A DNA stretch of 64,000 nt. Source: Acidimicrobiales bacterium. Its GTDB lineage: Bacteria > Actinomycetota > Acidimicrobiia > Acidimicrobiales > Bin134. The stretch lies in the NCBI GenBank assembly GCA_965208505.1, contig OZ242339.1, forward strand, positions 1,331,876-1,395,875. Reading direction: 5' to 3'. Below, in pieces: positions 13,054 through 31,675 of the stretch. The position numbers and the translations under genes were made by a program. Each line of letters begins with the position of its first letter. Position 1 is the stretch's first letter. The notes below the pieces were generated by a model that made no database searches, was not told the DNA's origin, and was given only the letters and a program-made list of their open reading frames with translations.

Positions 13054-14418
13054 CTATGCGGGCCGGGATGCCAGCATCTCAGCGACCTCCTCGGCCGTGT
13101 CGACGCCGCTGGCCACAGCACCGTTGACAATAGGCGACCGCATGTAATCGCCTGCAATGAAGAGGTTCTTCACATCCTGTTTGAGTTGGCTGCGCATTTC
13201 CAGAATGGCGGTGAACATTCCGGGCTGTCCCATACAGACAGCCTCGTTCCATCGGTAGACACGGGTGAAAAGCACATCGTCGTCGTTGGGGATCGCGGAG
13301 CCGGGAGGGGCGTTGCGGCGGGCGTCGCCGAGCATCTGCCGGACGATTTCCTCATCGTCGAGCGGGAACAGCTCTTCGGCGCGGTCTCTCCCCACCCAAA
13401 GATCAAGTGTGCTCTTGCCGGGCGGCGCGCATTCGGGCAGGTTGACGGTGCGGTCCAGCAGCGCCGGAGTGTTGTCCTCGGGGTACAGCGCAACACTCCA
13501 ACCGGCAGGAAGCGGCCGATGGTTGAGTCCAACCACCACTCGGATGCCGCGCGAGTAGTTCACCTTGCTGAGTGCGTGGCGAATGCTCGGTGACAGGTCC
13601 GGCATGATTTCGAGTGCCTTGGTAGCCGGTACCGCACAAATGACGGCGTCTGCCCCGATACGCTCGCCATCACCGGTGATCACACCGGTCGCCACGCCGT
13701 CTTCGATCACAATACGCCTCACCGAAGTGGAGAGGCGGATGCCTCCCCCCAATCTGTCAGCCAGGGCGTATGACAGCGCACTGCACCCTCCCTGTGGGAC
13801 GTAGAGTTGGGTTGGCTTGAACAGCACCTCGCCCAGAAACACCCGGATCCAGGTTGCCCCGAACTGTTCGGGGTAGCCCATCGTCAATTCCAGGAAACCC
13901 TCCAACGTGACCCTTAGATGCTTGGGCACGCTGAGTCTGTCGAGGAAGTCGCCGTAGGTTTCCTCCCCGTCCAGTTCGGCAATCTTGTGGTCGCTGGCAT
14001 AATTCAGATACTGGGCATCGGCCCGGAGGCCCTTGGCCAGTTTCAAGGTGGGCCAGATTCCCCGGGGAGACAGGAGTCCCAAGGTCCAGAACGGTCGAAT
14101 GTTCTTGAGCAAGGTGCCGAGAGAGTCGATCGGGGTGGTGACAACCCAGCGTCCGTGCCGATACCAGCCGATATCCATCTTGGTGCGGATAATCGGCAGG
14201 CCCAACTCCTCGCAAATGCGAAAGGTGACGTCGTAGGAGGAAGGGAAGAAGTCGGCGCCCTTGTCCGTCGAGAACCCATCGACTCTGTCGCCGCCCATGC
14301 GTCCGCCGACCTGGTCGCCGGCCTCGAGGAGGAGGGGGTCGAGCCCGTGCTTTTGGAGGGTGAATCCTGCGCTCAGTCCAGCGGCCCCTCCACCAACGAT
14401 TACAACTTTCCTTGCCAT
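13054..14418 (-). CDS. NAD(P)/FAD-dependent oxidoreductase (amine oxidase / phytoene desaturase-like)
   Basis: N-terminal dinucleotide fold VVIVGGGAAGLSAG...LLEAGDQVGGR and C-terminal FIAGDY. Length is 454 aa. Confidence 0.8.
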   Translation of the reverse strand: MARKVVIVGGGAAGLSAGFTLQKHGLDPLLLEAGDQVGGRMGGDRVDGFSTDKGADFFPSSYDVTFRICEELGLPIIRTKMDIGWYRHGRWVVTTPIDSLGTLLKNIRPFWTLGLLSPRGIWPTLKLAKGLRADAQYLNYASDHKIAELDGEETYGDFLDRLSVPKHLRVTLEGFLELTMGYPEQFGATWIRVFLGEVLFKPTQLYVPQGGCSALSYALADRLGGGIRLSTSVRRIVIEDGVATGVITGDGERIGADAVICAVPATKALEIMPDLSPSIRHALSKVNYSRGIRVVVGLNHRPLPAGWSVALYPEDNTPALLDRTVNLPECAPPGKSTLDLWVGRDRAEELFPLDDEEIVRQMLGDARRNAPPGSAIPNDDDVLFTRVYRWNEAVCMGQPGMFTAILEMRSQLKQDVKNLFIAGDYMRSPIVNGAVASGVDTAEEVAEMLASRPA

Positions 14419-14465
14419 CCAAGGGGAAGCATATAGGTCATCCGCCGCTGGCCTAGGATCCGGCT

Positions 14466-16793
14466 ATGTACACGTCCATTTCCCGATGGTGCTTCCGGCA
14501 TCCCTGGCGCGGATTAGCAGTCTGGCTCGCTGCTCTCTTGTTGATTGCCGGTATCTCTGGAAGCCTCGGGGCTTCCTACAGCGGCGAACTCGCCATTGCC
14601 GGCACCGAGAGCCACTCTGGCAGCGAGATTCTCAAAGACCATTTCGGGGGTGTCGGCGCCGGGCCCGGAGGGACTGTTGTCTTCCGGGCTGAGCAGGGCA
14701 TCGACGACCCAGCAGTGCAGACCGCGCTGAGCGAGCTGCTGACCAGAGTCGACGCCCTCGAGGGCACCACGGTCATCTCGCCCTACGGTCCGGGAGGGCA
14801 GTACCGCATCGCCCAGCAAGGTGGTGAGGCCGGGCTGATCGCCTACGCCGACGTGAGCCTTCCGCCCGGGACCAGCGGCACCGATGCGCAGGAGGTGGGC
14901 GCCGAGATCGAGGACCTCATCGAGGAGCTCGATCTCCGGTCGATGGAGGGCCTCGATGTGGAGGTCGGCGGTGTTTGGTTCGCTGAGCTCCAGCCGCCTG
15001 AGTCGGAGGCTATTGGGCTCGCCTTCGCCATTTTCGTGCTGATCGCGGTGTTGGGCTCGGTAGTAGCCATGGGTGCCACCATTGGCGCGGCCCTCATAAC
15101 GGTGGGTATCGGCACGGCTGGAATCGTGGTCTTGAGCAACATCATCACGGTGCCGGACTTCGCGCCCGCCATCGGCTTGATGATCGGCTTGGGGGTGGGT
15201 ATCGACTACGCCCTGTTCATTATCACCCGCTACCGCGATGCGCTCAGCAGCGGGCACGGACCCGAGCAGGCGCTGGCCACAGCCCTCAACTCATCCGGCC
15301 GGTCGGCCGTGTTCGCGGGAGCGACCACGGTCGCCTCCCTGCTGGTGATGCTCACGATCGGGATCCCACTCGTGAACGGTTTCGCCATAGCGGCGGCGGC
15401 CACGGTGGCCGTCGTGCTGGTGGGCTCGGTCACACTTTTGCCCGCTCTGATCGTTCTGCTCGGCGACCGGATTGCCACAACCCGCGTCCGGGGCATGGTG
15501 GTTGCGGTGCTGGTCAGCGTGGCACTGTTCGGCTTCGGTGCCGGCAGTCGACAACTCCTGGTTTTTGCCCTTGGAGCGGCTGTGATCGTGCTGGTGGCCG
15601 GACTGTTCGGGGGGGAGGGAAACCGGCTGCGACGAGTCTTGCGGCCGCGCCAGGAGAAGCCGTTGCGAGACACTGGCTGGTATCGGCTCAGCCGCAGGGT
15701 GCAGGCCCGGCCCTGGACCTTCGCCATCGGCGGCACCATCGTCTTGCTTCTCTTGGCTGCCCCGGTCTTGGATCTGAGATACGGCTTTCAAGATGAGAGT
15801 AACTTCTCTGCCGACACGACCACCCGCAAGGCCTATGACCTGACTGTCGCCGGCTTCGGACCCGGTGGCAGCGGCCCGCTGCTGGTGGTGGCCGAGGTGT
15901 CGGCACCGTCGCAGATGAATGATCTCGCCAGCCTGTCGCAGGCTCTTGGCGCCACCGACGGAGTCAGTTTTGTCACTCCTCCAATTCCGAACAACCCGGT
16001 TGCTCCGACCGCCGCGGCGATCGAGGTTAGGCCAGCCACCGGGCCCAAGACCATCGAGACCGAAGCCCTCGTAAAGGACATACGCGACACCGTTGTGCCC
16101 GCGGCCACCGCCGGGACCGGCCTCGATGCTCAAGTGACGGGTTTCACGGCTGTCAAGGTCGATGTCAGCGATTATTTGAAGGTCCGCACCCCGTTGTTCT
16201 TCATCGTGGTGCTAGGTGCCTCCTTTTTGCTGCTGATGGCCGTATTCCGCTCGCTGGTCGTGCCGCTCAAAGCGGTGATTATGAACATGCTGTCGATCGG
16301 CGCGGCTTACGGCGTGTTGGTCGCGGTGTTCCAATGGGGCTGGCTCGGCGGCCTCATTGGAGTCGAGCCCGGCCCGATCGAGCCGTTCATACCCATGATG
16401 CTGTTCGCAGTGCTGTTCGGCCTTTCCATGGACTATGAGGTTTTCCTGCTGTCGCGCATGAAAGAGGAGTTCGAGCGCACCGGCGACCCCGTCAACTCGG
16501 TGGCCGACGGCCTGGCCGCCACGGCGCGAGTCATAACTGCTGCCGCGTTGATCATGGTGTTCGTCTTCGGGAGCTTCGTGTTCGAGGACCAGCGGGCGAT
16601 CAAGATGTTCGGCATCGGCCTAGCGGCCGCGGTAGCCGCCGACGCCAGCCTGGTACGCATGCTCATAGTGCCTTCCACGATGGAACTGCTCGGCACCCGA
16701 AACTGGTGGCTCCCGGGCTGGCTCGATCGCATTCTCCCCAAGATCAATGTTGAGGGGAGCCCCCCAGAGGCCCCAGCACAGGAAACTGACTGA
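14466..16793 (+). CDS. MMPL-family (RND superfamily) membrane transporter
   Basis: 775 aa with two TM bundles. MMPL hallmark segments are GVGIDYALFIITRYR and GLSMDYEVFLLSRMKEE. Confidence 0.9.
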   Translation: MYTSISRWCFRHPWRGLAVWLAALLLIAGISGSLGASYSGELAIAGTESHSGSEILKDHFGGVGAGPGGTVVFRAEQGIDDPAVQTALSELLTRVDALEGTTVISPYGPGGQYRIAQQGGEAGLIAYADVSLPPGTSGTDAQEVGAEIEDLIEELDLRSMEGLDVEVGGVWFAELQPPESEAIGLAFAIFVLIAVLGSVVAMGATIGAALITVGIGTAGIVVLSNIITVPDFAPAIGLMIGLGVGIDYALFIITRYRDALSSGHGPEQALATALNSSGRSAVFAGATTVASLLVMLTIGIPLVNGFAIAAAATVAVVLVGSVTLLPALIVLLGDRIATTRVRGMVVAVLVSVALFGFGAGSRQLLVFALGAAVIVLVAGLFGGEGNRLRRVLRPRQEKPLRDTGWYRLSRRVQARPWTFAIGGTIVLLLLAAPVLDLRYGFQDESNFSADTTTRKAYDLTVAGFGPGGSGPLLVVAEVSAPSQMNDLASLSQALGATDGVSFVTPPIPNNPVAPTAAAIEVRPATGPKTIETEALVKDIRDTVVPAATAGTGLDAQVTGFTAVKVDVSDYLKVRTPLFFIVVLGASFLLLMAVFRSLVVPLKAVIMNMLSIGAAYGVLVAVFQWGWLGGLIGVEPGPIEPFIPMMLFAVLFGLSMDYEVFLLSRMKEEFERTGDPVNSVADGLAATARVITAAALIMVFVFGSFVFEDQRAIKMFGIGLAAAVAADASLVRMLIVPSTMELLGTRNWWLPGWLDRILPKINVEGSPPEAPAQETD

Positions 16794-16822
16794 TGGCCTC
16801 GACTAACTTTACATAACATGTA

Positions 16823-16847
16823 TTCTCAACGCTTGTGGAAATTTCTG
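16823..16847. repeat. Left copy of a 25-nt direct repeat, TTCTCAACGCTTGTGGAAATTTCTG
   Basis: Matches 25097-25121 at 24/25 positions in the same orientation. Weaker similarity extends to about 16817-16854. It sits in an AT-rich spacer after the MMPL stop. Confidence 0.9.
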
Positions 16848-17120
16848 GCAAGCATCGAATCTTCCCGTTCCTGAACGCGGTTTCAGCTATGCAAAAGGCC
16901 AGCAGTAGGTGACTGCGGCCGGCCCAAGTGAGGATGCAGGATAAATCAGATTCGGAGCCTGTCCACCAAGTGCCCACGAGCGGTCGAATGCCGACAGCGT
17001 GCGAGCCTCTGACCTGGGAGAACAGCGGAATCATGTCGATGGCCACGGAACAGCGCTGCCAGCGGTGTACACGGGGCGTCTCGCCCAGAGGGCACCAGGT
17101 GAAGAGGTCCGCGCCCGTCT

Positions 17121-18038
17121 CTACCGTGTTGGGATGGCCCTTTGGTATGGATCCCCCGCCTGGTTGGAAAACGGAGAAGGGGTGTGCGCGTGAACGACAA
17201 GAGCCTCAAACCGAGGCGCAGGCTCGAAGTCGAGGTGACGACTCAAGATGGTTGAAAGTGGCGGAGCTTCTACCATGTTGTCGCTGCCGGCTGCGCCCGC
17301 TCCGCCCTCCTCTGTGCCGACTTCCACCGTCGCAGGCAGAGTCCCCTTCAACCGCTCGTCGTGGGTGACCAGGTCCACCAGGCCCGAGTCGATGAGCACC
17401 CTGATCACCTCTAGCAGGCACTCGACTCCTTCCTCGTCGAGCATGGCCGCTCCCCCGCCGTCGATCACGCGTCGGACCTCCTCGGGGATCGCTGAGACCT
17501 TCTCGCGCAGCGCCGGCGCGCTCGCGGCCAGCTCGGATGCGACGGTGGCTTCGCCCGACTCGTCGGCCAGCGCCCCCATCCTCGCCTCCGCTGTGGCGAT
17601 CTCGGTCTCCAACTCGCGTGCGGACCGCTCCTCCCGCGACCTCGCGCGCTCGGCTTCTGAGAGGTCTCTGCGCCTGGCGTCTTCCTCCTTGCAAGCGGAC
17701 TCAGCGGCAGCACGGTCGTCGGCGCTGGACTCGGCGTCCGCCATCTTCCTCGCCGCTTCGAGGCTGGCCCTGCGCTCGTCGTCGACGAGCGCATCCACCT
17801 CGTAAACGAGGTCGTCGAACATATCCCCTACCAGCAGGTCGACGAGCTTTGTGCGGCGCTGCGAAGGGGAGAGCTCTGAGAACCTGCCCAGGTCGCCCTG
17901 GCGTGCCAAGCACGACATCTTCCACATGTCCTTGCTGCAGCCCGTCACTTTCTCGGCTTCGGCGGCGACGTGATACCCGAAGTTGTAGGCCCCGTCATGG
18001 CCGACCGCTCCCCTGCCTGCGACGCCTAAGAGTTCCCG
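17121..18038 (-). pseudogene. Fragment of an SbcC/SMC-like ATPase (lacks the Walker A N-terminus and the C-terminal ABC motifs)
   Basis: The frame is open from the TGA at ~18040. VTGCSKDMWKMSCLARQGDLGRFSELSPSQRRTKLVDLL matches the LPQGxFxxFLxAxPxxRxxxLxxL segment of SbcC/Rad50. A Glu/Arg/Ala coiled coil follows, then non-family sequence. Confidence 0.4.
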
Positions 18039-18335
18039 TCAGCCTGCCCATGCCCTCTTCGCTCCCCGTTGGTCCGCTCAGACAGCGACGCGGCGCACTA
18101 CTGCACCGCTGTGGAATGCCCTGAGCAGGCGCGGGGCTGGATAGAGCACTTCGCCGCCCGCGGCGCGCTCGACATCGAGCACCTGGACGAGCGGACGGTC
18201 GCCGCCCTCATGGAGCACGGGCTGGTGTCCGATGTGGCCGACATCTACACGCTCGACTTCGCCCAGGTGAGCGGGCTTGAGTTCTTCGACTCGGAGGCCA
18301 ACAGGCGTATCGTGGAGAAGCTCCGAGCAGTAGGT
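18030..18335 (+). pseudogene. ligA: Internal fragment of NAD-dependent DNA ligase LigA (Zn-finger / HhH region only)
   Basis: Own translation after the TAA at 18027: EFPSACPCPLRSPLVRSDSDAAHYCTAVECPEQARGWIEHFAARGALDIEHLDERTV...VADIYTL. This corresponds to the LigA CPxCGSxLxR...RCxNxxCPAQ...HFASRxAMDIEGLG region. No adenylation or BRCT domain is present. Confidence 0.6.
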
Positions 18336-18399
18336 GTGGGGCGGGTTTGTGGTGGAGTGGCAGCCCTCCACATGGCCTGATATGCCGCCCTCGTGCGCC

Positions 18400-19048
18400 C
18401 CCGTGCGGCTTGTGGGGTGCTGGCCCGCTGGGCACGAATGCCGCCCCGCGTGGCACACATTCTCAGAGATGTGGCGGTGCTCGCCGCGCGCCGTGACGCA
18501 GGCGACCACAACAGCGGGGCACACCCTCGACTCGAATCTGTGGTGGGCTTCGATCCATGTGATCGTCTTCCCGGTTTTCGCGGCCGTGCAGCCAGGCTCG
18601 GGCCGCGTGTGGTCGTAGTCCCTGCAATGCACGGCGAGGTTGTTGTGGGTGTGCTCCAAGCAGGGCGGAGGCCCGGGATCTGCTGCGGCAGGGCAGATTT
18701 TCGACCTCGGCTCGTAGTGGGCCTCCACCCAGGAGACCGTCGTGCCCGCGTTCGCGTCCGTGCAAGCGGGCCGGGCGCTCGCGTGGCTGATGGAGGCGCA
18801 ATGCGAGACGATCCCGTCGTGGTCGTGCTTGGCGCACCCCTGGGCTGCGCGGTGGGGTCGGGTGTGGATTCGGTGGTGGGCTGCGCGGTGGGGTCGGTCA
18901 CCACCTCCTTCTTCGGCTGAGGTGGGCAGGTGGAACCGCTGCCCTGGATGATCTGCGATCCGTCCCAGCAGTCGATGAACGCCCAATGGATGTGCCATTT
19001 GTTCTTCCTCACGGTTTTCGTGGAGATGGCGGTCAAGCAATGCCACAA
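18400..19048 (-). pseudogene. Cys/His-rich tandem-repeat protein gene, apparently frameshifted (3' limit uncertain)
   Basis: The N-terminus is in the frame starting at 19048 (MWHCLTAIST...TDPTAQPTTESTPDPTAQP). After ~18840 the coding-like sequence continues in the -1 frame (GCAKHDHDGIVSHC...TVSWVEAHY...ICPA / PCLEHTHNNLAVHC...TITWIEAHH...VCPA). Both segments are GC3-rich. Confidence 0.35.
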
Positions 19049-19051
19049 ACC

Positions 19052-19088
19052 GCTATGTGGGAAAAATGACTACCAGTTTTCTCGCTTA
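19052..19088. promoter_or_regulatory. 37-nt semi-palindromic element, copy 1 (GCTATGTGGGAAAAATGACTACCAGTTTTCTCGCTTA)
   Basis: Identical to 20399-20435 at 32/37 positions, counted by hand. It has internal dyad GTGGGAAAA/TTTTCTCGC arms and is AT-rich relative to its surroundings. Confidence 0.6.
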
Positions 19089-19221
19089 TGAGAGGATGAT
19101 GCCACCATGATCTTGGGTCGCGGCTGTATCGGTTGGCCGTCCTGGCGTGACCCCCTTGGTTTGGTCCACCTGTTGTGAGAGTCCGTTGTCCAGTATTGCT
19201 GGATGGAGGAGGATCACGATT

Positions 19222-19503
19222 ATGGCGAAGCGGAGGCGGCACACGCCCGAGCAGATTGTCCGCAAGCTCAGGGAGGCCGATCGGCTTTTGGGCGAGGGCG
19301 CGGGCGTCGCTGATGTGGCGCGGCGCCTGGAGGTGTCGGAGGCCACGTTTCATCGGTGGCGCAACCAGTACGGCGGTTTGAAGGCCGATGATGTGAAGCG
19401 TCTGAAGTCGTTGGAGGCCGAGAACGCCCGTTTGAAGCGGATAGTGGCCGACAAGGAGTTGGAGATCGACGCGTTGCGGGAGATCAGCCGGGGAAAATGG
19501 TGA
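19222..19503 (+). CDS. IS3 transposase OrfA (HTH)
   Basis: MAKRRRHTPEQIVRKLREADRLL...ATFHRWRNQYGG plus a leucine-zipper-like tail. Confidence 0.85.
   Translation: MAKRRRHTPEQIVRKLREADRLLGEGAGVADVARRLEVSEATFHRWRNQYGGLKADDVKRLKSLEAENARLKRIVADKELEIDALREISRGKW
19491..19497 (+). other. Candidate -1 programmed ribosomal frameshift heptamer G GGA AAA
   Basis: An X XXY YYZ pattern in the orfA frame, 4 nt before the orfA stop. orfB is in the -1 frame and overlaps this site. Confidence 0.5.
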
Positions 19504-20357
19504 GCCCGCCGCAGCGGCGCAGAGCTGTTGAGATGCTCCAGGAGCGGCTCGGGGTGTCGCAGCGGCGGGCTTGTGCGATCGCCGGCCAGCACCGGTCTGC
19601 GCAGCGGTATGAGCCGGCGGCGTTGGACCCCGACCGGGATTTGCGGGCGGAGCTGCGCGAGTTCGCGAAGAACCACTCCCGGTGGGGTTACCGGCGGGCG
19701 CATGCGGTGTTGCAGCGCGGGGGCTGGGCGGTGAACCGCAAGAAAGTCCAGCGCATATGGCGCGAGGAGGGCCTGCGGGTGCCGCCCAAGCAGCGCAAGC
19801 GCCGGCGCGCAGGGGAGTCCGACGCCGGCGCCGGCCTGCTCAAAGCCGAGCGCCCCGACCACGTGTGGGCGCTGGACTTCCAGTTCGACGTGACCTCTGG
19901 AGGCCGCCGGATCAAGATATTGCACATACTCGACGAGTTCACCCGCGAATCGCTCGCCGACCTCGTCGACCACAGCATCGACGCCGACGCCACGGTGGCC
20001 TGCTTGGACAAGGTCGCCTCGGCCAGGGGCCGGGGCCCCGAGCTCATCCGCTGCGACAACGGCCCCGAGCTCACCGCGGACGCGCTGCGGGACTGGTGCC
20101 GATACACCAGCACCAAGACCAGCTACATCGACCCGGGATCGCCCTGGCAGAACCCCTGGGTCGAGTCCTACGGCGCCCGAATGCGCGACGAGCTTTTGGC
20201 CATCGAGCAGTTCGACAGCCTCCTCGAGGCCCAAGTACTTGTCGCAGACTGGAGAAACGACTACAACACATACCGCCCGCACTCCGCGCTCGGCATGCTC
20301 ACACCAGCCGAACACGCAGACCAATGGGCGAAAAACAACCAGGAAAAACTCTCATAG
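19497..20357 (+). CDS. IS3 transposase OrfB (rve/DDE integrase domain)
   Basis: DDE candidates are WALDFQF, IRCDNGPE and NPWVESY, followed by YNTYRPHSALG. Confidence 0.85.
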   Translation: MVSPPQRRRAVEMLQERLGVSQRRACAIAGQHRSAQRYEPAALDPDRDLRAELREFAKNHSRWGYRRAHAVLQRGGWAVNRKKVQRIWREEGLRVPPKQRKRRRAGESDAGAGLLKAERPDHVWALDFQFDVTSGGRRIKILHILDEFTRESLADLVDHSIDADATVACLDKVASARGRGPELIRCDNGPELTADALRDWCRYTSTKTSYIDPGSPWQNPWVESYGARMRDELLAIEQFDSLLEAQVLVADWRNDYNTYRPHSALGMLTPAEHADQWAKNNQEKLS

Positions 20358-20398
20358 CAGATGGACCAAAAAACGGGGTCCGATCAGTCCGATTGATT

Positions 20399-20435
20399 GC
20401 TAAGTGGGAAAAATAATTGCCAGTTTTCTCACTTA
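20399..20435. promoter_or_regulatory. 37-nt semi-palindromic element, copy 2 (TAAGTGGGAAAA-N11-TTTTCTCACTTA core)
   Basis: The 12-nt arms have 1 mismatch. The element ends 22 nt upstream of the fic1 start. Confidence 0.6.
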
Positions 20436-20456
20436 GTGGCTAGGTAACGTAGAACT

Positions 20457-21887
20457 GTGGGGAGCTACACCATTCATCGTGTGTCCATGCAAGGAGTTCC
20501 TCCCGCATCGAGCACCGCGACGCGAAAGCTGGACCACCCGTATGGCAGTTTCGCCTCGTATCATCCAGATCGGCTTATGGAGCGCCATTTCGCAGCTCCC
20601 GCCCATTGGTCCGATGCGGCGCTCGATGCGGAACTCGCGATAAGGGAGTTCGAGCGGCGGCACGGACCTTTCGCCTCCCGCGTCGGCTGGGTGCTGCAAC
20701 GTTCTGAGAGCATCGGCTCAAGCACCATCGAGGATGTGAATCCTTCTCTGCGGAGAGTGGCCAGGGCCGAGGCGATAACCCGAAACGGCGGAGACCCCTA
20801 CGACGACCCCGCCAACGAGTCCGTCGGGAACATCGCTGCCACCCGTCTCGCCGCCGAGATCGGGGATGCACAGGGGCCGGTCACCTTGGACGACCTGCTC
20901 TCGATCCACTCCACATTGATGGGCCACACGTCCAAGCCCGAAGTGGGCGGGCATCTTCGCCCTGGTTGGGTCCGCATCGGCGGAGTGCTCGGCGGCTACC
21001 CACCTCCCGCATATGTCGCCCCGCCCGCTGAGGAAGTACCCGAGATGATGGACGATCTGCTCGAATACATCAACACCACCAACCATCACCCTGTCACCGC
21101 GGCCGCTGTTGCCCACGTCCAGTTCGAGTCGATTCACCCATTCCGCGACGGGAACGGGAGAGCCGGCAGAGCCCTAGTCCAGGCCATCCTCCGCAAAGGC
21201 GGCATCACTCGCTACACCACACCGCCGATCAGCGCCGTCCTCGCATTCAACCGAGACGAGTACATTGATGCCCTCGCCGCGTCTCGCTTCGAGGGGTCGG
21301 CGGACTCATCCGACCAGGTGAACTCGCTCGACCAGTGGGTGTCGCTCTTTTCCTCCGCTGCGGAAGCCTCCTGCGACTACGCAGAGGGGCTCATAACCCG
21401 AATTGACACTGTGACCAGCAAATGGGACAAGAAGCTCAGAAGCCGCAGGGGATCGGCTGCCCGAAGGATCGTTGAGCGCTTGCCCGAGATGCCCGTCTTC
21501 TCTGTGCAAAGCATGGCTGACCTATCAAGAACCTCATCCGCATCGGCATATAGGGCCATCGAAAAGCTCACCGCGGCAGGAATTATCGCGCCTGTGCGGG
21601 GGAAGCACCGCAGAAGCGGACTCTACGAAGCCCCTGAGATTCTCGACCTGTTCAAGGGTGAAAGTGAGCAGGACGAAGTGTTCGCTCAAGAAATCACAGA
21701 GCTCGTCGCTGGTCCGTCTTTCGGCGGAGCGCACACGAAGAAGGAAAAAGCAGCGGAAGCCATTCGCCTGCGACGCGCCGGGAATACTCATCGAGCAATC
21801 GGGGAGACACTGGGGATGTCAACTTCATGGGCGCAGGCAGTCACAAAGGGCATCGCCAGGGGCAAACATCCGAACCGCAGCAGGTGA
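20457..21887 (+). CDS. Fic/DOC-family protein (Fic_N + Fic + C-terminal wHTH/HTH), copy 1
   Basis: Intact Fic motif HPFRDGNGRAGR. The N-terminal alpha-inh-like motif is SSTIED. The C-terminal tail RLRRAGNTHRAIGETLGMS is HTH-like. The start (GTG at 20457 or ATG at 20487) is uncertain. Confidence 0.9.
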   Translation: MGSYTIHRVSMQGVPPASSTATRKLDHPYGSFASYHPDRLMERHFAAPAHWSDAALDAELAIREFERRHGPFASRVGWVLQRSESIGSSTIEDVNPSLRRVARAEAITRNGGDPYDDPANESVGNIAATRLAAEIGDAQGPVTLDDLLSIHSTLMGHTSKPEVGGHLRPGWVRIGGVLGGYPPPAYVAPPAEEVPEMMDDLLEYINTTNHHPVTAAAVAHVQFESIHPFRDGNGRAGRALVQAILRKGGITRYTTPPISAVLAFNRDEYIDALAASRFEGSADSSDQVNSLDQWVSLFSSAAEASCDYAEGLITRIDTVTSKWDKKLRSRRGSAARRIVERLPEMPVFSVQSMADLSRTSSASAYRAIEKLTAAGIIAPVRGKHRRSGLYEAPEILDLFKGESEQDEVFAQEITELVAGPSFGGAHTKKEKAAEAIRLRRAGNTHRAIGETLGMSTSWAQAVTKGIARGKHPNRSR

Positions 21888-21930
21888 CCGGATTGGGCCG
21901 AGCTTGCACGGCTCAATCCGGTCATTTTGA
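21886..21930. terminator. Long hairpin between convergent fic1 and the ATPase gene (GACCGGATTGGGCCG...CGGCTCAATCCGGTC followed by ATTTTGA)
   Basis: Read directly: 10-bp perfect outer stem plus an inner GCCG/CGGC pairing. It overlaps both stop codons and has a short T-run on the plus strand. Confidence 0.45.
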
Positions 21931-23295
21931 GCGGCACCTCCCGCTGTGCCCGTCGGGGCGTATACACCGCCCCGGAACCTGTTTCATCGGCCTATTGCAC
22001 CTGGGGCGGCGCGTCCCTCTCGCAGCGGCAGGAGCCGCCGCGATTTCGGGCACATCGTGACTTGACGGCCTGGCCTCGCCTCGATGCTGTTCAATGATGC
22101 TGAGGGCGGCGGTCGACTTCCGAACGAACTCCTCATCCATCAGCGGGCCAAGTCGGGCGTGTGTCCCCCCGTCGTAGGCGAGTGCTCCCATCGCGTCTAC
22201 CCGTTTCAGCAGGTCTGAGATCGCTTCGGACGAGTAGGGAAGCAGATCGGAGATGTCCCAGAGCGCCGCCTGCCCGCCATGGGTTGAGACGGCTCGCACC
22301 AGTGCCCGCTCGTTTTGGCTGAGGTTCTGCCACACATGCGCGTAGACGCGCTTACGCACAATCGACGTGGCTTGCAGGTCGGCGAACGCCGCGTCTTCAG
22401 CGCCGATCATCCGAATAGGAGCGTTAGCGTGCCGCCACGCCCAGTGTCCGAGCAGTTGCATCTTGTACGGGTATCCCTCAGCGTGCCGTACCAGCATCTC
22501 CAGCGCGTCCGGGGCGATGGCCCCCCCGCCGTCCCTGATGCCCTGTTGGAAGAAGAACCTGGCATCTTCCTCGCTGAGAGCCGCTATCTCGTGCTGCTCG
22601 CAGCGGCGGAAAAACGACAACCGGCGGTCCGCGAGCATGGTGTGGAGAACCTCTGGGAGCGCTGCGCCCACAAAGGCTACGGGCAGTTCACCATCGCGTG
22701 AGGTGACGAGCTGGAGGTCGGCTGCGAGCCTGACCATCTCGTCGCGCTCGCCTGCGTGCATCTCATCCACCGTGAGCAGCACACCGGTGTCGTGTTCCAA
22801 TGCGCCGTGTCCGATCATTTCGAGAGTGTCTCTCACGCTCGCACTCGTTCTGGTCTCCGAGATCTCCTTGGTGAATCTCGCGAGCCACAGGCGCAGGCTG
22901 CTGCTGACGGTCTTCGTAGTGTGGGCGGCATCGAGGGCGGCGGGTGTGGCGCCCATTACATCTTGGACAAACGGGTTTTTCGCCGCCTCGACCATGATGC
23001 GGTGGGCCAGGCCCGGCGAGCTCGCGTCGACCCTGAGAACGACCCAGCCTTCGGCTGCGGCGATGTCCTCTATCTCGTTGAGCATCACTGTCTTGCCAAA
23101 GCCGCGCTGCCCCAGAATCAGGTTATTGCTATTCGGATGGCGCGGCGAGGCGAGGACACTCTCGCTGATATCAGCGATCTCGACGGATCTGCCGGCGACG
23201 AGGTGCGGGCGCCGCCCGAAGCCGGGCGTGAACAAACTCTGCTGTTCGGGTGCCCGTCTGTCGACCACACCTAACTCTAACACGCTACCCGACAC
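21922..23295 (-). CDS. AAA+ ATPase (AAA_16/ATPase_2-like, ORC/Cdc6-like fold) with a C-terminal Cys/His tail
   Basis: Walker A LILGQRGFGKT and Walker B VLLTVDEMH, with a helical C-terminal half. The tail is CNRPMKQVPGRCIRPDGHSGRCR. The GTG start lies inside the tandem 20-mers, so the start is uncertain. Confidence 0.7.
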   Translation of the reverse strand: MSGSVLELGVVDRRAPEQQSLFTPGFGRRPHLVAGRSVEIADISESVLASPRHPNSNNLILGQRGFGKTVMLNEIEDIAAAEGWVVLRVDASSPGLAHRIMVEAAKNPFVQDVMGATPAALDAAHTTKTVSSSLRLWLARFTKEISETRTSASVRDTLEMIGHGALEHDTGVLLTVDEMHAGERDEMVRLAADLQLVTSRDGELPVAFVGAALPEVLHTMLADRRLSFFRRCEQHEIAALSEEDARFFFQQGIRDGGGAIAPDALEMLVRHAEGYPYKMQLLGHWAWRHANAPIRMIGAEDAAFADLQATSIVRKRVYAHVWQNLSQNERALVRAVSTHGGQAALWDISDLLPYSSEAISDLLKRVDAMGALAYDGGTHARLGPLMDEEFVRKSTAALSIIEQHRGEARPSSHDVPEIAAAPAAARGTRRPRCNRPMKQVPGRCIRPDGHSGRCRSK

Positions 23296-23335
23296 AATCG
23301 CACGCTACCCGACACAATCGCACGCTACCCGACAC
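23281..23335. repeat. Tandem 20-nt repeat, CACGCTACCCGACACAATCG x2 plus a 15-nt partial third copy
   Basis: Read directly. Copies 1 and 2 are identical. The repeat overlaps and precedes the ATPase start on the minus strand. Confidence 0.95.
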
Positions 23336-23493
23336 GGTATCCTTGAACTCGCTTCCAGGCTTGAACTAAAGCAGCGCTTCCTCTCCACAAACCACCGGCG
23401 GGATGGTCCGACAGGAAGTGCTCTATTCTCTCATCGGCGCCGTCGGCTGCGATTGGCTAGGGTGTCGCCCCGTTCGATGAGATAGGCATCATG

Positions 23494-24825
23494 TCATCTC
23501 GCCGAGTAGCGGTGCTGCCCGCTGTGGCCTTTGGGGAGGCAGCAGTCCTTTCTTGAGCGAGGGCCGCGAAACCCGCAGGTCGTTCCATCGGCGTTGTCTG
23601 ATGCGCTGAACTGGGGCCGTGCCAGCCCGCCGTCGGGTCCCATTTGCCTGAGGCTGTCCACTAACTCGGGAACTGTAAATCGACGGTTCCGCGCTCCCCC
23701 CGTTCGATGCACGATACCTGCGCTCTCAAGAGAGCCAAGCGCTTCCCTTGCCGCCCGTTTGGTAACTCCCAGCCGCGTTGACACCATGTCAGCATCCAGC
23801 ACTGGCATCGCGGGCAGAGCCTCTAGCAACTCCGCCGCTGTGCTTCCTCTCCTGAACCGCTTGGATTGCTGCCACCGGGAAACCATCATCTCGGCACTCT
23901 GAGTCGCCGAAAGTGCCTGTCTGTGGGCTTCTCCGCAGGAATCAGACAGCACCTCCAGCCATCGGCTCAAAGCCACGCTGCGAACAGCGTGTTCATCAAT
24001 CCCGCAGACAACTCGTGTGTCGTTGAGCGCCTGGTAGTATCTCTGCCTGTCGTTGCTCAACGCCGTGCTGATCGGAACGGCTCCGTTCGCTGCTCCTGAC
24101 GCGTTCAACACAGTATGTATGAGTGCCCTTCCTGTCCTGCCGTTACCGTCCTCGAATGGGTGGATGGTCTCGAACTGGGCGTGGACTGCTGCCGCCTTCA
24201 GCACGGGGTGGTGGCCGCTCTCGTTCACATAATCCGCCAGGTCGTCCAACAGCGGTGGCACTTCCTCTGGCGGTGGTGGGACGAACGACGCATCCTCGAT
24301 CAAACAGCCGGCAGGGCCTATCCAGATGGGCGAAGTCCGCACAGTGCCGCCGATATCCCTCTCCCGCGTGCCTTCGAAGAGAAGATTGTGGAGGGCGAGA
24401 ATGTCGTCTGCGGAGCAAACGCCGCCTGTCCGCATTTTCGCCCCCAACTCGACCGCCGCCGCTATCTGTTTGGCAGCTCCCAAAGTCAGTGAGTCGTTCT
24501 CGTCGGAGACTGGCTTGCCAGCTTGGACCATGTACCGCGCCCAGGCGAATCCCGATTCTGTAGCGTCCACCCCCTCAATCACGCTAGACCTGATGCTCTC
24601 GTCGCGTGCCATCATCCAGTCGGCTATCGCGCTGCCGAGCTCGCTGGCCGGCAGGGCGCTTGTGGCGGACAGCGCCCTGTCGGCCGCGGTCACCGCACTC
24701 AGGTCGGCGGCGCTGAGCGCTGGCTCCCACCCCGACAGCGGATGCGGCACATAGGAGCGGTAAGCTCTGCGCCCGTAACCTGCGGCAGTCGCCATCCAGC
24801 CCTCAGCCTCAACGTACCTCCCCAC
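23494..24825 (-). CDS. Fic/DOC-family protein (Fic_N + Fic + wHTH), copy 2, with a C-terminal Cys/His tail
   Basis: Intact Fic motif HPFEDGNGRTGR. The N-terminal alpha-inh-like motif SSVIEG fits [ST]xxxE[GN]. The tail is CGFRGPRSRKDCCLPKGHSGQHR. Confidence 0.9.
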   Translation of the reverse strand: MGRYVEAEGWMATAAGYGRRAYRSYVPHPLSGWEPALSAADLSAVTAADRALSATSALPASELGSAIADWMMARDESIRSSVIEGVDATESGFAWARYMVQAGKPVSDENDSLTLGAAKQIAAAVELGAKMRTGGVCSADDILALHNLLFEGTRERDIGGTVRTSPIWIGPAGCLIEDASFVPPPPEEVPPLLDDLADYVNESGHHPVLKAAAVHAQFETIHPFEDGNGRTGRALIHTVLNASGAANGAVPISTALSNDRQRYYQALNDTRVVCGIDEHAVRSVALSRWLEVLSDSCGEAHRQALSATQSAEMMVSRWQQSKRFRRGSTAAELLEALPAMPVLDADMVSTRLGVTKRAAREALGSLESAGIVHRTGGARNRRFTVPELVDSLRQMGPDGGLARPQFSASDNADGTTCGFRGPRSRKDCCLPKGHSGQHRYSAR

Positions 24826-24835
24826 ACCGCCAGCA

Positions 24836-24905
24836 TAACGCGTCGCATGGGCTATAACTCTTGTGTTCAGGACGCGATGCGCCCGCTAACGCGTCGCATG
24901 GGCTA
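24836..24905. promoter_or_regulatory. Two perfect 19-nt direct repeats, TAACGCGTCGCATGGGCTA, 51 nt apart, upstream of fic2
   Basis: Read directly: copies at 24836-24854 and 24887-24905. Each contains the palindrome ACGCGT. Confidence 0.8.
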
Positions 24906-25096
24906 CATGTTGGTCTCGCTCCCAAGCTTGTCCTCGAACACCACTGGTGCCACGCGGCACGATGCCCGATTTACCGTTGGGCATGGACGAGACCGCAGAT
25001 CCGGGCATTGAGGTTTCCTCAGGCGAGGCGGCCGACAGGCTGGCTGCCGACCTGAACGAGAGGTTCGGTGCTGGCATCGGCAAAGCTGATCGTGTG

Positions 25097-25121
25097 TTCT
25101 CAACGTTTGTGGAAATTTCTG
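25097..25121. repeat. Right copy of the 25-nt direct repeat, TTCTCAACGTTTGTGGAAATTTCTG
   Basis: Matches 16823-16847 at 24/25 positions. It is followed by the most AT-rich stretch noticed in the window (25122-25200). Confidence 0.9.
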
Positions 25122-25248
25122 CAAACAAGAAAAAATGAAAATAGCTGTAGACAATTGAGAAGATATTAGATAGGCTCACTTCCCTTGGCTTGAGCCAGGG
25201 TTATCGGCTTCGCAGGCCCCCATCGAGAAATGTCGAACGGAGAGCCGT
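25122..25248 (+). promoter_or_regulatory. AT-rich putative promoter / 5' region of the Tad-like operon
   Basis: CAAACAAGAAAAAATGAAAATAGCTGTAGACAATTGAGAAGATATTAGATAGG contrasts strongly with the surrounding GC-rich DNA. No TSS can be assigned by eye. Confidence 0.3.
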
Positions 25249-26352
25249 ATGGGAGCCGTCTGGTGTGGCCAGCGCCTCGTTGCCCTACTCATCGTGTTGA
25301 CCGCGGCGTGCGGTGCTTCCGAGACGGTGGCACCCGAGGTTTCTCCCGGTCCTCAGCCCGAGCTGTCCGGCGAGCCGGCCACTTTTGTATCCGGGGCTGC
25401 TGGGCCGGCGGACAGCCGAACCGAGGCAATGCCCTTCGCCACAACTACCCCGTCCTCTATTGCGAGCGCAATCCCGGAGGTCGTTGAGATCCCGGTTGCG
25501 CTTGCCGAGTCAGCCCCAGGTGCCGCTGATATTCCTGCCGCAGTCCCTGCTGTGGTCTCAGATGCCGAGAACGCTGCGGCTGTGACCGCGACTCTCCCAG
25601 ACCCGGACTCGCTCCTGAAGGCCGCTCAAAACAGCACGTTTCATCAATTTGGCGACGATGTGTATACCTGGAGCAGCGACCGGAGAGTCGTCATCCTAAA
25701 GATGCCGGTCGGCCACCCGGCCCTCGATGAGGTCAGGGATCTCCAAGGGCACAGGGACGGGATCATTGAGGACACCCCGGAATCCCGTTCTTGGGTACAG
25801 CGCTGTGCCCGCCGTCAAGCCGAACCAGCTCTCAGCACTTCTGACGCGGTGTACGGGGCAGTGTCCGCCCAGAGCGTGTACTCGTGTCTGGGCGGGTTCG
25901 CCCACCTCGTCGAGCTCTTCGCCCGGTATTGGTGGACCGACTCGGGAGTGGCCTGTGTGGCTGACGCAGTAACAGCCCACTCCTTTCGAGGAGATGCCCA
26001 TCCCCGCCCTCTCTCCATATGTCCATCAGCCGGCTATGACCCGGCTGCGCCGCAGCAGCCGGGATGGTTGAAAAAGCGCTGCGCAGACATTGTGGCCGCC
26101 AATCCCAATTCGAAGTTCCCGACCGACCCGGCGGTCTCCCGAGAACCGCTTCCGTCTTGCTGGGCACCCATCGTTGAGATTGTCGAGGACCAAGCCAGCG
26201 AAAACGTCGAATTCGGACTCACCGACAGTCCACACGATTGCTACCACGCCTTCTTGGGCTATGTGTGGGCCCGACAGACCGGGCGGGACAACCGCCCGCC
26301 CAATGACCTGGCCATCGGCTGCCACTACCGAGCCTTCGAGGCGGTCGCATGA
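25249..26352 (+). CDS. Cys-rich lipoprotein of unknown function (first gene of the Tad-like operon)
   Basis: Signal peptide with lipobox LIVLTAAC|GAS, an Ala/Pro-rich linker, then a Cys-rich C-terminal domain. It overlaps the next gene by 4 nt. Confidence 0.6.
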   Translation: MGAVWCGQRLVALLIVLTAACGASETVAPEVSPGPQPELSGEPATFVSGAAGPADSRTEAMPFATTTPSSIASAIPEVVEIPVALAESAPGAADIPAAVPAVVSDAENAAAVTATLPDPDSLLKAAQNSTFHQFGDDVYTWSSDRRVVILKMPVGHPALDEVRDLQGHRDGIIEDTPESRSWVQRCARRQAEPALSTSDAVYGAVSAQSVYSCLGGFAHLVELFARYWWTDSGVACVADAVTAHSFRGDAHPRPLSICPSAGYDPAAPQQPGWLKKRCADIVAANPNSKFPTDPAVSREPLPSCWAPIVEIVEDQASENVEFGLTDSPHDCYHAFLGYVWARQTGRDNRPPNDLAIGCHYRAFEAVA

Positions 26353-27665
26353 CTGCGACCGCGCGAATCTCGGCCGGCATGGTGCTGGTGGGCTTGCTCG
26401 GCATCGGGCTAGCGCTTTCCTCCCCCGACCACCAGCCAGTTCTTGCCCATGAGCAGACCAAGCTTGTCCCAGCCAGCGGGTCGGGAAGATGTCCGTCTGG
26501 CGTGCTGGGCTGCGCGGAGTCATGGACGCACGTCAATTCTTGGACTCACTACACCGCCCGCGTACCCCCGAACTGCTCGGTGGACATCATCGACCAGTGT
26601 GGGATCACCGTGACCTCCAGGTCAGCGACTAGCTCCTGCCCGGGCACCAGCAATTGCGGCCATGGACCGCACAACAGCACTCCTCGGCCTTCGGGCCCCG
26701 GAACATGGACCACCTGGAACGGCCATCGCAATATCAACTATCGGTGGTCGGGGCAGCGACAGGTACCCGTCGATCACGATCACGCCGGAGGGAGTCCGAA
26801 CCCTGCTACGCCGACACCGTCGGCCACCCCGGCGCCTACTTCCCACTCAACGCCGCAGCCCACCCCCTCCCCCAAGCCCATCGACTTGACTGGTTTCAAT
26901 CCCTGCGCCAATGGCGGGTGCCTGCCCTCGTGCATGACCGATGGCATCCCCGGTAATTGCCCGTGGGAGATCCCAGAGTCCAAGGACTGCACGACCGCGT
27001 GGGGCAGCACAACCCGTCAGCGGTTGCTGAGCCATCTGCGATGGGAGTCGATCGTTCCCTACTCCTCCGGATTCACGGGCCAGCACCATCCCGAAGTCCC
27101 TGGAGGGCAGTTCTTCTTGACGGCAGCGTCAACGTCGGGAAGCCCTGCCCGCCATTGGACCGCACAGCAGCCAGGAACCACGCTCAACGTTAACGACGCC
27201 CCGGTTGACGGGTGCCTGTGGACGGCCGACGCCGTCGGAGTGTCGCTCCGGGAGCTGCTCCCCCACGAGCCATCTGACCTATCCCGGCTCCGCTCGCCTG
27301 GCAATGTCGCGGCTGCGGACGAGGCTCGACAAGCAGCAGCTCTGTGGGGCCGACTGAGCTCCGAACGCCAGCAGTGGTTCCAGGCAGCCTTTCCCAGGAG
27401 CGACCCTTCAATCATTTGGTGCCCTCCCGCTGACCTGCCCCCGTGGACCGTGCCGGTTGACAACGTGCTCTCCCTGTCAAGCGACTGGGAAGACCGCCAT
27501 GGGCGATGTCGATGGGCCATCCCCCGCCGCGGTTTCTGGGAGTGGAAGATCCTGGTCCAATACACTTCAGAGCAGGGCGACAACCACACCGAGACGTTGG
27601 CTTCCGACCTCTCCTGGTTCCGTGAGCCGACCGGATATATGGGTCAGCAGGTAACGCTGTGGTAG
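26349..27665 (+). CDS. Secreted/membrane-anchored Cys-rich protein of unknown function with a Pro/Thr linker
   Basis: N-terminal hydrophobic segment ISAGMVLVGLLGIGLAL, a Cys-rich module, the linker PNPATPTPSATPAPTSHSTPQPTPSPKP and a Trp-rich C-terminal domain. It overlaps both neighbours. Confidence 0.55.
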   Translation: MTATARISAGMVLVGLLGIGLALSSPDHQPVLAHEQTKLVPASGSGRCPSGVLGCAESWTHVNSWTHYTARVPPNCSVDIIDQCGITVTSRSATSSCPGTSNCGHGPHNSTPRPSGPGTWTTWNGHRNINYRWSGQRQVPVDHDHAGGSPNPATPTPSATPAPTSHSTPQPTPSPKPIDLTGFNPCANGGCLPSCMTDGIPGNCPWEIPESKDCTTAWGSTTRQRLLSHLRWESIVPYSSGFTGQHHPEVPGGQFFLTAASTSGSPARHWTAQQPGTTLNVNDAPVDGCLWTADAVGVSLRELLPHEPSDLSRLRSPGNVAAADEARQAAALWGRLSSERQQWFQAAFPRSDPSIIWCPPADLPPWTVPVDNVLSLSSDWEDRHGRCRWAIPRRGFWEWKILVQYTSEQGDNHTETLASDLSWFREPTGYMGQQVTLW

Positions 27666-28279
27666 CCCGGCTCAGCGGCGAGCAGTGGTCACCAGCATCC
27701 TGGCCGACGAGCTTCAGGTGGCGCCTGATCGCCGCGGTAGTCGTTTTGGCGGCAACCGTCACTGCGATTCTTGCTTTGTCTCGCGACGGCGACATCGCTG
27801 TGGAGGTGCCGGTAGCAGCCACCGCGCAGTGGTGGCCCAAGGGGCATCCCCCCGGCGACCACGCCATCGTCCACATACCGGCCGGATTGGCGGCACTCTT
27901 CGTCCATCCCTCAGAGCTGGAGGGAACCGTGGCGGCGATCGATGTACCCGAAGGCACGCTAGTGACGGCCAAGATGCTGCGTCCCCGCGACGGCGGCGAC
28001 GACTCTCGCACCACGGCATTGATGCGGTTTAACGTCAGCTCTGAGCTGTGGCCCAACCCTGGCCCCGTCGCCGGAAGCCGCGCGGTTTTCTCCCTTGCTC
28101 CTGGCGGGTGCGCCGAGGCTCAGGTGACGTTGGTCGCCGTCGACAGCGATGGCGCGTCTGCACGGGTGACTGTGGAGGCCGCTCCCGAACTGGCCGCAGT
28201 TTTGGCCGATGAGCAGTGGTGGATTTGGGAGTCTCCTCCCGGAAATTGGCCCCAGTGCGAGCGGGAGACGATTGGCTGA
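27659..28279 (+). CDS. CpaB/RcpC-like pilus assembly protein (TM + SAF-like domain)
   Basis: GTG start overlapping the upstream stop. One TM segment (LIAAVVVLAATVTAILAL). GTVAAIDVPEGTLVTAKML resembles a SAF-domain segment. Confidence 0.5.
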   Translation: MVARLSGEQWSPASWPTSFRWRLIAAVVVLAATVTAILALSRDGDIAVEVPVAATAQWWPKGHPPGDHAIVHIPAGLAALFVHPSELEGTVAAIDVPEGTLVTAKMLRPRDGGDDSRTTALMRFNVSSELWPNPGPVAGSRAVFSLAPGGCAEAQVTLVAVDSDGASARVTVEAAPELAAVLADEQWWIWESPPGNWPQCERETIG

Positions 28280-31669: not shown

Positions 31670-31675
31670 CCAACC

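Follow-up and report, generated by a model that had tools for sequence, protein, structure and literature searches.

The 64,000-nt stretch analysed here (hereafter the window), from contig OZ242339.1 of an Acidimicrobiales bacterium, carries an inserted island of ~8.24 kb at 16848..25090, bracketed by a pair of short direct repeats and adjoining a sequence that resembles dif, the XerC/XerD recombination site of bacterial chromosomes. On its left lies an ordinary chromosomal gene for an MMPL transporter (14466..16793, + strand; Pfam MMPL, E = 8e-66), whose orthologues are 98-100% identical in genomes named Candidatus Poriferisocius, sponge-associated Acidimicrobiia. On its right, the first gene of a Tad-like operon, coding for a lipoprotein (25249..26352, + strand), starts 128 nt past the right repeat copy and is 97% identical to the gene beside the island-free site of L002, an assembly of a close relative described below. 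Genes downstream of this operon are housekeeping ones (ThyX, TatC and the Pup-proteasome set). The flanks were as ordinary as the original prediction, made from the sequence by eye, had described them. Scans with Pfam, NCBIfam and PADLOC also bore out the accessory-type content that it had listed between the repeats, namely gene fragments, an IS3 element, two Fic genes and an AAA ATPase. The island does not differ from its surroundings in G+C (0.636 vs 0.63), and its tetranucleotide profile is more deviant than that of any background segment of equal size (distance 0.189, against 0.103 ± 0.016 and a maximum of 0.153).

The direct repeat itself, a 25-mer of sequence TTCTCAACG(C/T)TTGTGGAAATTTCTG, is found at 16823-16847 and 25097-25121 on the same strand, with 24 of 25 positions identical as announced. 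These are its only two copies in the window, since no third one was detected with up to three mismatches allowed, shuffled sequences predicting 0 matches. An automated repeat search lengthened the pair to 29 nt at 93% identity, and counted from 16817 and 25091 it reaches 31 nt, with 28 identical positions and a transition at each of the three differing ones. No similarity between the two copies was found past these 31 nt, and the weaker resemblance reported up to ~38 nt was not recovered. The AT-rich surroundings noted for both copies correspond to a lower GC in their 500-nt windows (0.57-0.59 vs ~0.63). In wider searches, the motif is not a dispersed element, since its 22-nt core had no match in a set of 185,579 species-representative genomes to which that of the closest relative, L001 (3.88 Mb), belongs, and a single one in Joint Genome Institute (JGI) metagenomes, located within a sulfatase gene and read as chance, and a 26-nt pattern covering the XerD arm, centre and most of the XerC arm of the site described below had none in IMG/VR. 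Approximate copies of the repeat were likewise missing from 83 other loci.

The predicted empty site, with the MMPL gene, a single repeat and the lipoprotein gene in this order, was found in L002 and L003, two separate and independent assemblies of a close relative (Ca. Poriferisocius) whose MMPL orthologue is 98% identical to that of the window. There, the island is missing and the gap between the MMPL and lipoprotein genes spans 251 nt with one repeat copy. BLAST aligned L002 746-12339 with window 5220-16804 and L002 12427-22328 with window 25097-35023, and both window junctions align with the lone L002 repeat copy (12408-12452). The segment is polymorphic as an insertion/deletion, with the repeat as its exact limits. 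MMPL orthologues of other genera (L004-L083), considered as additional empty sites, were rejected, neither an adjoining Tad operon nor the motif being present at these loci.

The dif site is a 28-bp sequence at the replication terminus, where dimeric chromosomes are resolved by two tyrosine recombinases of the host, XerC and XerD. A dif-like XerCD site lies at 16806..16833 (- strand) of the window, composed of an XerD-type arm (16806-16816, ACTTTACATAA), a centre (16817-16822, CATGTA) and an XerC-type arm (16823-16833, TTCTCAACGCT), and reads AGCGTTGAGAA TACATG TTATGTAAAGT on the minus strand. It overlaps the left repeat copy (16817..16847, + strand), which starts at the boundary between XerD arm and centre and consists of the dif centre, the XerC arm and a 14-nt flank (TGTGGAAATTTCTG). 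The published dif sites used as references are those of E. coli (GGTGCGCATAA TGTATA TTATGTTAAAT), B. subtilis (ACTTCCTAGAA TATATA TTATGTAAACT) and F. alni (CACGCCGATAA TGCACA TTATGTCAAGT) (PMC3025954). Over its whole length, the window site matches B. subtilis and F. alni dif at 19 of 28 positions each and E. coli dif at 17, with 25 of the 28 positions agreeing with at least one reference, and its XerD arm TTATGTAAAGT matches both B. subtilis and F. alni dif at 10 of 11 positions. This 28-mer ranks first of the 127,946 positions of the window, the runner-up scoring 21, and among 3.6 million positions from 91 related loci a score of at least 23/28 was reached only by this site and its orthologues in L001, L002/L003 and the sponge-metagenome contig L086.

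Comparison of these four alleles (window, L001, L002/L003 and L086) revealed arms that are the same bar one transition in the XerC arm of L002/L003, together with variable centres (CATGTA in the window and L086, CAAAGA in L001, GATATA in L002/L003) and unrelated outer flanks, which is the pattern expected of protein-bound arms. The full dif-like site occurs once in the window, and its neighbours differ on both sides among the four alleles. At the empty site of L002/L003 it is single as well (ACTTTACATAA GATATA TTCTCAACGTT), a presence/absence pattern of the kind that characterises integrative mobile elements exploiting Xer (IMEX). On the side of the XerD arm, L002 further carries, at 12391-12401 and within a 68-nt insertion after the MMPL stop codon, an orphan XerD-type arm (TATAACTTGACATAA) located 19 nt upstream of the real one, which resembles a scar left on that side by some earlier event.

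Strand composition changes in the same region of the window. Over 1-16.8 kb the GC skew amounts to +0.019 and over 25-64 kb to -0.053, genes of either orientation agreeing in sign (Mann-Whitney p = 2e-4 on per-kb values), and the cumulative G-C count of the 64-kb window has its maximum at 17-20 kb. Among 7-mers chosen after the fact, GGGTGGC has a strand polarity of 20:0, with + strand copies at 803-5759 and - strand copies at 20838-61235, + strand Tad genes included, and similar polarities were observed for GGGAGGG (14:1) and GGGGGAG (20:2). GGGTGGC is a candidate for the FtsK-orienting sequence of this lineage, or for another of its architecture-imparting sequences. Considering the sequence match, its rank, the conservation of its arms, the GC-skew switch and the polar 7-mers, the locus is most likely the chromosomal dif of a Ca. 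Poriferisocius (Acidimicrobiia) genome.

By comparison with this complete site on the left, the right repeat copy (25091..25121, + strand) has the features of a degenerate half-dif, with a centre-like CGTGTG, the XerC arm TTCTCAACGTT and the 14-nt flank. Positions 25080-25107 read GCAAAGCTGAT CGTGTG TTCTCAACGTT, where the XerC arm is intact and four of the six centre positions are kept, whereas the position of the XerD arm (25080-25090, GCAAAGCTGAT) agrees at only 3 of 11 and no arm is left. A full site on the left (16806-16833) and a half-site in direct orientation on the right (25091-25107) is the layout of an IMEX, and the same arrangement is present in L086.

The right end of the island is an arbitrary breakpoint within a gene, and the open reading frame (ORF) truncated there is full length at another locus, L085, of the L001 genome. 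Window positions 25092-23494 are 95.6% identical to L085 9704-11302, with homology ending at the repeat edge, and the small ORF that enters the right repeat copy in the window (24962..25138, + strand) matches the L085 one over its 44 first codons, the latter being complete (112 aa) and the former cut thereafter (...GKADR|VFSTFVEISANKKK*).

A second island at the same kind of site was identified in L086, in which the order, in window orientation, is an unrelated non-MMPL gene, the 28-nt site in identical form, a counterpart homologous to the window island's left end, other cargo, the repeat and the Tad operon. Its left end is 80-90% identical to window 16848-17969 with a longer SbcC-like ORF, and its remaining cargo comprises small ORFs, HipBA and a DEAD/ResIII helicase. 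On its right side, a second CATGTA TTCTCAACGCT followed by 14 nt precedes the Tad promoter region and the lipoprotein gene. The two L086 copies are identical at 27 of 31 positions, again with transitions only (4/4), and extend once more from the centre through the XerC arm over 14 nt, which here read T[C/T]TCT[C/T]GGG[C/T]GTT[A/G] and are unrelated to the TGTGGAAATTTCTG of the window. Gene conversion between the two copies of a pair figures among the rival explanations. In both islands the left-end homology begins straight after these 14 nt, and no right terminus shared between the window and L086 islands was found. The HipA/HipB toxin-antitoxin pair occupies L086 3346-5092, within the dif-side island, and hipBA lies near dif in E. 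coli K-12 too.

The remaining allele belongs to L001, a 99% relative (chromosome of 3.88 Mb) and the closest complete genome. It shares 97.6% identity with the window as far as 16833, a position inside the repeat. Past the XerC arm it continues into an unrelated AbiEi/AbiEii remnant of ~0.95 kb without any duplication, and its Tad operon (L001 12369-22328 vs window 25186-33787) shares only 74% nucleotide and 64-83% protein identity with that of the window. Judging from this alignment, the half-site is also a breakpoint for the swapping of a whole pilus operon. Two further candidates were rejected: the L001 insert as a diverged left end of the island, its alignment score being no better than that of shuffles, and the Tad operon as a second, larger island with a third half-site, no third copy of the XerC arm being present after the operon and the genes that follow it being the housekeeping ones named above. 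With SoFic-like and AAA genes in the window, AbiE remnants in L001, and HipBA and a helicase in L086, the XerC side of the site has the look of a minor hotspot of defence and of toxin-antitoxin genes, and the locus would thus serve as a point of exchange for them.

The original prediction had also suggested that the insertion may have displaced the control region of the Tad operon, which the comparison of alleles does not support. A candidate promoter of the operon (25148..25176, + strand; TAGACA, 17 nt, TAGGCT) was recognised by comparison alone, a strict consensus scan of the region not calling it, and its T(A/T)GACA-17-TAnnnT form is kept in the window, L002, L001 and L086 though the spacers have diverged. 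Between the XerC arm and this motif lie 40 nt both in the window (counted from the right copy) and in L086, and 41 nt in the empty allele L002, and this constancy indicates that everything from the dif centre rightwards is unaltered; by this alignment, only the XerD arm and the 3' flank of the MMPL gene would have been shifted 8.3 kb away. The fixed distance of 40-41 nt to the candidate -35 box in three alleles, together with the palindrome GAAATTTC within the repeat, could also be taken to mean that the repeats are functional intergenic elements, for instance one an operator or UP-like element of the Tad promoter and the other part of the MMPL terminator region, and that relatives lost the bracketed DNA by slippage or recombination. 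We regard this as very improbable: the palindrome-bearing 14 nt are unconserved in L086 and missing in L001, the motif is missing from the 83 other loci and from the whole genome of a relative, and neither the origin of the duplication nor the exact coincidence of the conserved part with the Xer-type arms is explained.

No integrase ORF had been noticed in the original prediction, and scans of all ORFs with Pfam, NCBIfam and PADLOC, completed by six-frame Pfam scans of the unassigned stretches, confirmed this. Neither an integrase nor a remnant of one was found in the island, whose sole recombinase-type domain is the rve transposase of the nested IS3, and none was found in the 30-51.5 kb part of the window or in the L086 island. 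The window contains no tRNA or tmRNA, the junctions match no Rfam family and the site is intergenic, so that an RNA gene as integration target was rejected. With neither a tyrosine or serine integrase gene nor a tRNA, tmRNA or conserved-gene target, the segment lacks what defines an integrase-type island or prophage. Terminal inverted repeats were likewise not found at the island ends, and the organisation is not that of a DDE or composite transposon.

A classical island, integrated by its own tyrosine integrase at an attB of 25-31 nt and later deprived of the integrase gene by deletion, would fit some of these observations, as direct repeats and an empty site suit any Campbell-type integration, the visible decay (IS3, pseudogenes, truncated ORF) makes gene loss plausible, and the 31-nt identity exceeds a Xer site, like many integrase attachment (att) cores. 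The outcome would resemble the cis-mobilizable elements (CIMEs) reportedly described in work on ICESt1/3 of Streptococcus thermophilus, att-flanked islands without recombinase genes that rely on the integrase and att sites of a related integrative and conjugative element (ICE). The window island resembles them in the att-type direct repeats that bracket DNA without recombination or transfer genes, and differs in its dif-like site and in its presumed recombinase, the housekeeping XerCD. For a lost integrase, the resemblance of the neighbouring sequence to dif would have to be a coincidence, although the repeat starts exactly at the XerD arm/centre boundary of the best dif match of the window. 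In addition, the six-frame scans left no integrase remnant in the window island and the L086 island is equally devoid of integrase, the outer 14 nt of the repeat depend on the lineage, unlike a conserved integrase attB, and the right end lies inside a gene and not at a conserved arm of an element, with no relation between the right ends of the window and L086 islands. We therefore hold this scenario to be unlikely.

Our preferred interpretation, to which we give a somewhat better than even chance, is that the 8.24 kb segment is a degenerate, integrase-less IMEX-like island located on the XerC side of dif. [quoted passage not shown] By analogy with these elements, insertion was probably carried out by the host XerC/XerD and not by an integrase lost later. 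Xer-exploiting elements rely on the XerCD of their host and are never equipped with an integrase of their own (PMC5357621, PMC9226527, PMC9765430), hence the absence of an integrase gene, which the window island shares with them, requires no loss. Of the original proposal of an integrated, att-flanked element without its recombinase, the repeat-bounded indel and the empty site stand, and the lost recombinase gives way to a dif-like site on the left and an XerD-less half-site on the right. In the mechanism that we propose, a circle carrying the 31-nt segment would have recombined with dif in its central region through XerCD, restoring a working dif on the left and leaving a crippled site on the right. 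With the XerD arm missing, excision would be rare, so that the island would have remained stable and decayed, as seen in its pseudogenes, its IS3 and the ORF cut short on the right. Were the island lost, a single-copy empty site such as that of L002/L003 would be restored.

Several observations weigh against this interpretation. The XerC arm matches known dif sites at only 5-6 of 11 positions, its inner AGAA being as in B. subtilis. An unbiased polarity scan of all 7-mers did not place the switch sharply, its profile being flat and high from 15 to 25 kb and peaking again at 34 kb, the point at which genes change orientation; pinpointing the polarity switch from all 7-mers was dropped, as it is confounded by gene orientation. 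The skew change across the dif-like site of L001 is weak. The island encodes no recognisable mobility or Xer-activating function, and L085 shows no likeness to a pseudo-dif site at the position of the right breakpoint. Finally, an IMEX att site mimics dif alone (~22-29 bp) without further homology to the host, while in the window as in L086 the identity of the repeat continues for 14 lineage-specific nt outside the XerC arm, an extension not expected from standard IMEX integration.

The 31-nt length of the repeat may be accounted for if the attachment site was derived from the host. An older insert would have sat 14 nt from the XerC arm without duplication, L001 providing an example of an unduplicated insert directly beyond this arm. 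Aberrant excision from the XerD arm/centre boundary would then have joined an arbitrary internal point of the insert to the dif centre, and the resulting circle, holding the centre, the XerC arm, the 14 nt and the left end of the island, would have re-entered an empty dif of the same lineage. The junction of such a circular form would read ...GGCAAAGCTGATCGTGT(A/G)TTCTCAACG(C/T)TTGTGGAAATTTCTGGCAAGCATCG... We propose this model as one that covers five features, namely the equal length of 31 nt, a flank that is specific to the lineage yet matches within each genome, the left end common to both islands, right ends that are arbitrary, and the absent XerD arm. A broader reading, which we consider doubtful, is that the islands represent a class of Xer-exploiting elements whose attachment site is a captured piece of host dif (31 nt, no XerD arm) and not a mimic of dif, or, equally new, that an insertion mechanism produces a fixed 31-bp duplication measured off the XerCD-dif complex. 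If true, IMEX-like cassettes would be born by aberrant Xer excision beside dif, and the XerC side of dif in sponge-symbiont Acidimicrobiia would be a recombinase-free site for the exchange of defence and toxin-antitoxin genes.

The same features bear on a capture of foreign DNA at the terminus without Xer recombination, duplicating 31 bp of target. It might have taken place by end-joining or template switching, between a break at the XerD-cleavage position and a fork stalled ~14 nt outside the XerC-bound arm, or by some transposition-like mechanism not yet known, with a defined left end. A repeat of equal length and equal anchor in two lineages with different outer 14 nt suggests a ruler of this kind, as does the left-end homology that directly follows the duplication in both islands while the right ends are arbitrary. 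We nevertheless find such a capture improbable, as the nested IS3 holds the sole transposase and no terminal inverted repeats are present, a 31-bp target duplication anchored at a Xer site matches no known mechanism, and the boundary of one ancestral insertion explains the shared left end equally well, in a comparison of two examples only.

Among known systems, the closest analogues of the IMEX-like island that we favour are GGI, TLC-phi and LME-1. In GGI, the XerC arm and centre of difGGI match dif and the XerD arm is divergent, which stabilises integration (PMC5357621; PMC9226527). The window island resembles this Neisseria element as a presumably stable, non-phage island at a likely chromosomal dif, devoid of integrase and located between a good dif and an XerD-divergent dif-like site. 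It differs by its size of 8.2 kb, its content of defence-type genes and pseudogenes and its phylum, Actinomycetota, by the extent of divergence (difGGI differs from the XerD arm at only four of its six outermost positions, whereas the window sequence retains 3 of 11), and by the 14 nt of host flank added to its repeat. The attP sites of TLC and GGI both have non-canonical XerD arms that guard against excision (PMC9226527), and the passages on TLC-phi in the literature describe an attP with low XerD affinity and an integrated element lying between dif and a non-canonical site (PMC9226527; PMC6744903). This Vibrio cholerae satellite phage shares with the window island the degenerate XerD arm and the pairing of dif with a non-canonical flanking site; it possesses XafT, its own XerD activator, and replication functions, of which none is detectable in the window island, and it is a phage satellite where the island is without phage genes. 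Once integrated in Legionella, LME-1 has an intact dif on its upstream side and a modified one downstream, and its att was recognised as dif because it is conserved, has flanking genes that vary and sits where the GC skew inflects (PMC9765430), the logic that we followed here. Its 22-bp att is likewise identical to only part of dif; by contrast, LME-1 is a phage-like element of a single-recombinase (XerL) system, with an att wholly inside dif where the repeat of the window extends 14 nt outside.

The window island is best read as an IMEX-like island in a phylum new for this known kind of element. The examples cited are all from Proteobacteria, so that the host range of IMEX-like islands would be widened, and a quick full-text literature search, not aimed specifically at an actinobacterial IMEX, did not turn one up. 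The locus also provides a concrete dif candidate, and hence a candidate replication terminus, for sponge-symbiont Acidimicrobiia known only from metagenomes. Islands of this type would be missed by finders based on integrases or tRNAs, and it is the one described here that carries the candidate anti-phage genes locally. Should the origin model prove right, the lineage-specific 14-nt extension, seen twice, may reveal how IMEX attachment sites arise.

Gene mining of the island revealed a mosaic of remnants and intact genes. Next to the left repeat copy lies a pseudogene of an SbcC/Rad50-like ATPase (17121..17969, - strand), a C-terminal remnant with internal deletions and 80-90% nucleotide identity to L086; the remnant gave a weak match to LmuB in PADLOC. 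The single non-self relative of the remnant (17121-17948) in a large protein database is P0242, a protein of 433 aa encoded on L086 and itself weakly matching SbcC_Walker_B and the Rad50 zinc hook. It is followed by a fragment of LigA, the NAD-dependent DNA ligase (18069..18380, + strand; NCBIfam TIGR00575, E = 2e-18), which spans only positions 403-487 of the 652 of the model and keeps a zinc-finger remnant. On the opposite strand, an ORF of 322 aa (18078-19046, - strand) has a GC3 like that of coding DNA and is internally repetitive, with the unit T(V/I)(S/T)W(V/I)EAH(Y/H)...S(K/R)(I/V)CPA(A/V), without belonging to any family of Pfam, NCBIfam or PADLOC; given its overlap with the LigA fragment, it may be spurious. 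The small ORFs at the island ends had no Pfam family either.

A complete IS3-family element of 1244 bp (19143..20386, + strand), with rve, rve_3 and HTH_21 domains, is inserted in the island. Domain matches place its orfA within 19147-19503 and its orfB at 19497-20357 (+ strand), and it ends in imperfect terminal inverted repeats of ~30 nt of the TG...CA type, flanked by a duplicated 4-nt target, GTCC. A copy in the genome of a relative (L058 2939-4180) shares 89.9% identity with this element, whose transposase was the sole match in a plasmid collection (78%). Two near-palindromic units of 37 nt, 86% alike (19052-19088 and 20399-20435; GCTA(T/A)GTGGGAAAAAT...CCAGTTTTCTC(G/A)CTTA), lie just outside the IS3 ends and would have been ~60 nt apart, upstream of the first Fic gene, before the insertion. 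They were rejected as ends of the IS3, which are located inside them at 19143 and 20386, and may represent an operator pair or the remnant of a small repeat element.

The first Fic-domain protein (20457..21887, + strand; Pfam Fic, E = 3e-21; PADLOC SoFic, E = 2e-61) is SoFic-like, carries a C-terminal HTH and has an intact catalytic motif (HPFRDGNGRAGR), and the second one (23494..24825, - strand; Pfam Fic, E = 2e-24; PADLOC SoFic, E = 3e-61), also SoFic-like, keeps an intact motif as well (HPFEDGNGRTGR). They are 34% identical to each other and share the motif form HPF(R/E)DGNGR(A/T)GR. Both combine a Fic fold with the motif HxFx(D/E)GNGRxxR and match the SoFic profile, the three features by which SoFic was recognised, and they cover this profile almost end to end in PADLOC. 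Since their NCBIfam SoFic scores of 47-54 bits are far under the equivalog cut-off of 550, the two proteins are read as distant members of the SoFic family and as candidate anti-phage genes. Between the two Fic genes lies an ATPase of the AAA_16 family (21922..23295, - strand) with a Walker A motif GQRGFGKT. An inverted repeat with 19-nt arms, 89% complementary and separated by a 2-nt loop, occupies 21885-21924, exactly between the convergent first Fic and AAA_16 genes, and is probably a bidirectional terminator; it gave the sole weak Rfam matches, to a microRNA family and spurious. Three tandem 20-nt units (CACGCTACCCGACACAATCG), the third 80% identical, cover the start-codon region of the AAA_16 gene at 23281-23340.

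A homologue of the second Fic protein, P0121 (94% identical), is encoded at 2.46 Mb in the L001 genome, in another island with an AlpA-type gene. This locus, L085 1-11302 (2.45-2.47 Mb), contains a copy of the second Fic module, 95.6% identical and placed at the edge of the island, along with genes for AlpA/HTH_17, NYN, a nucleotidyltransferase and DUF4007 with a cysteine desulfurase. The position of this copy at the edge of another island suggests that the Fic module moves between islands. P0129 and P0124, other Fic homologues, were followed as a route to more dif alleles and rejected, their genes lying at unrelated loci. A convergent Fic pair together with a zeta-toxin/AAA_33 gene was also observed amid an NADH dehydrogenase (nuo) cluster of another genome at L088 10001-13969, and in L089, L090 and L091. 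Elsewhere in the window, a run of 17 G at 12999-13015, intergenic and located between two minus-strand genes, could be a slippage-prone tract or a homopolymer artefact of long reads.

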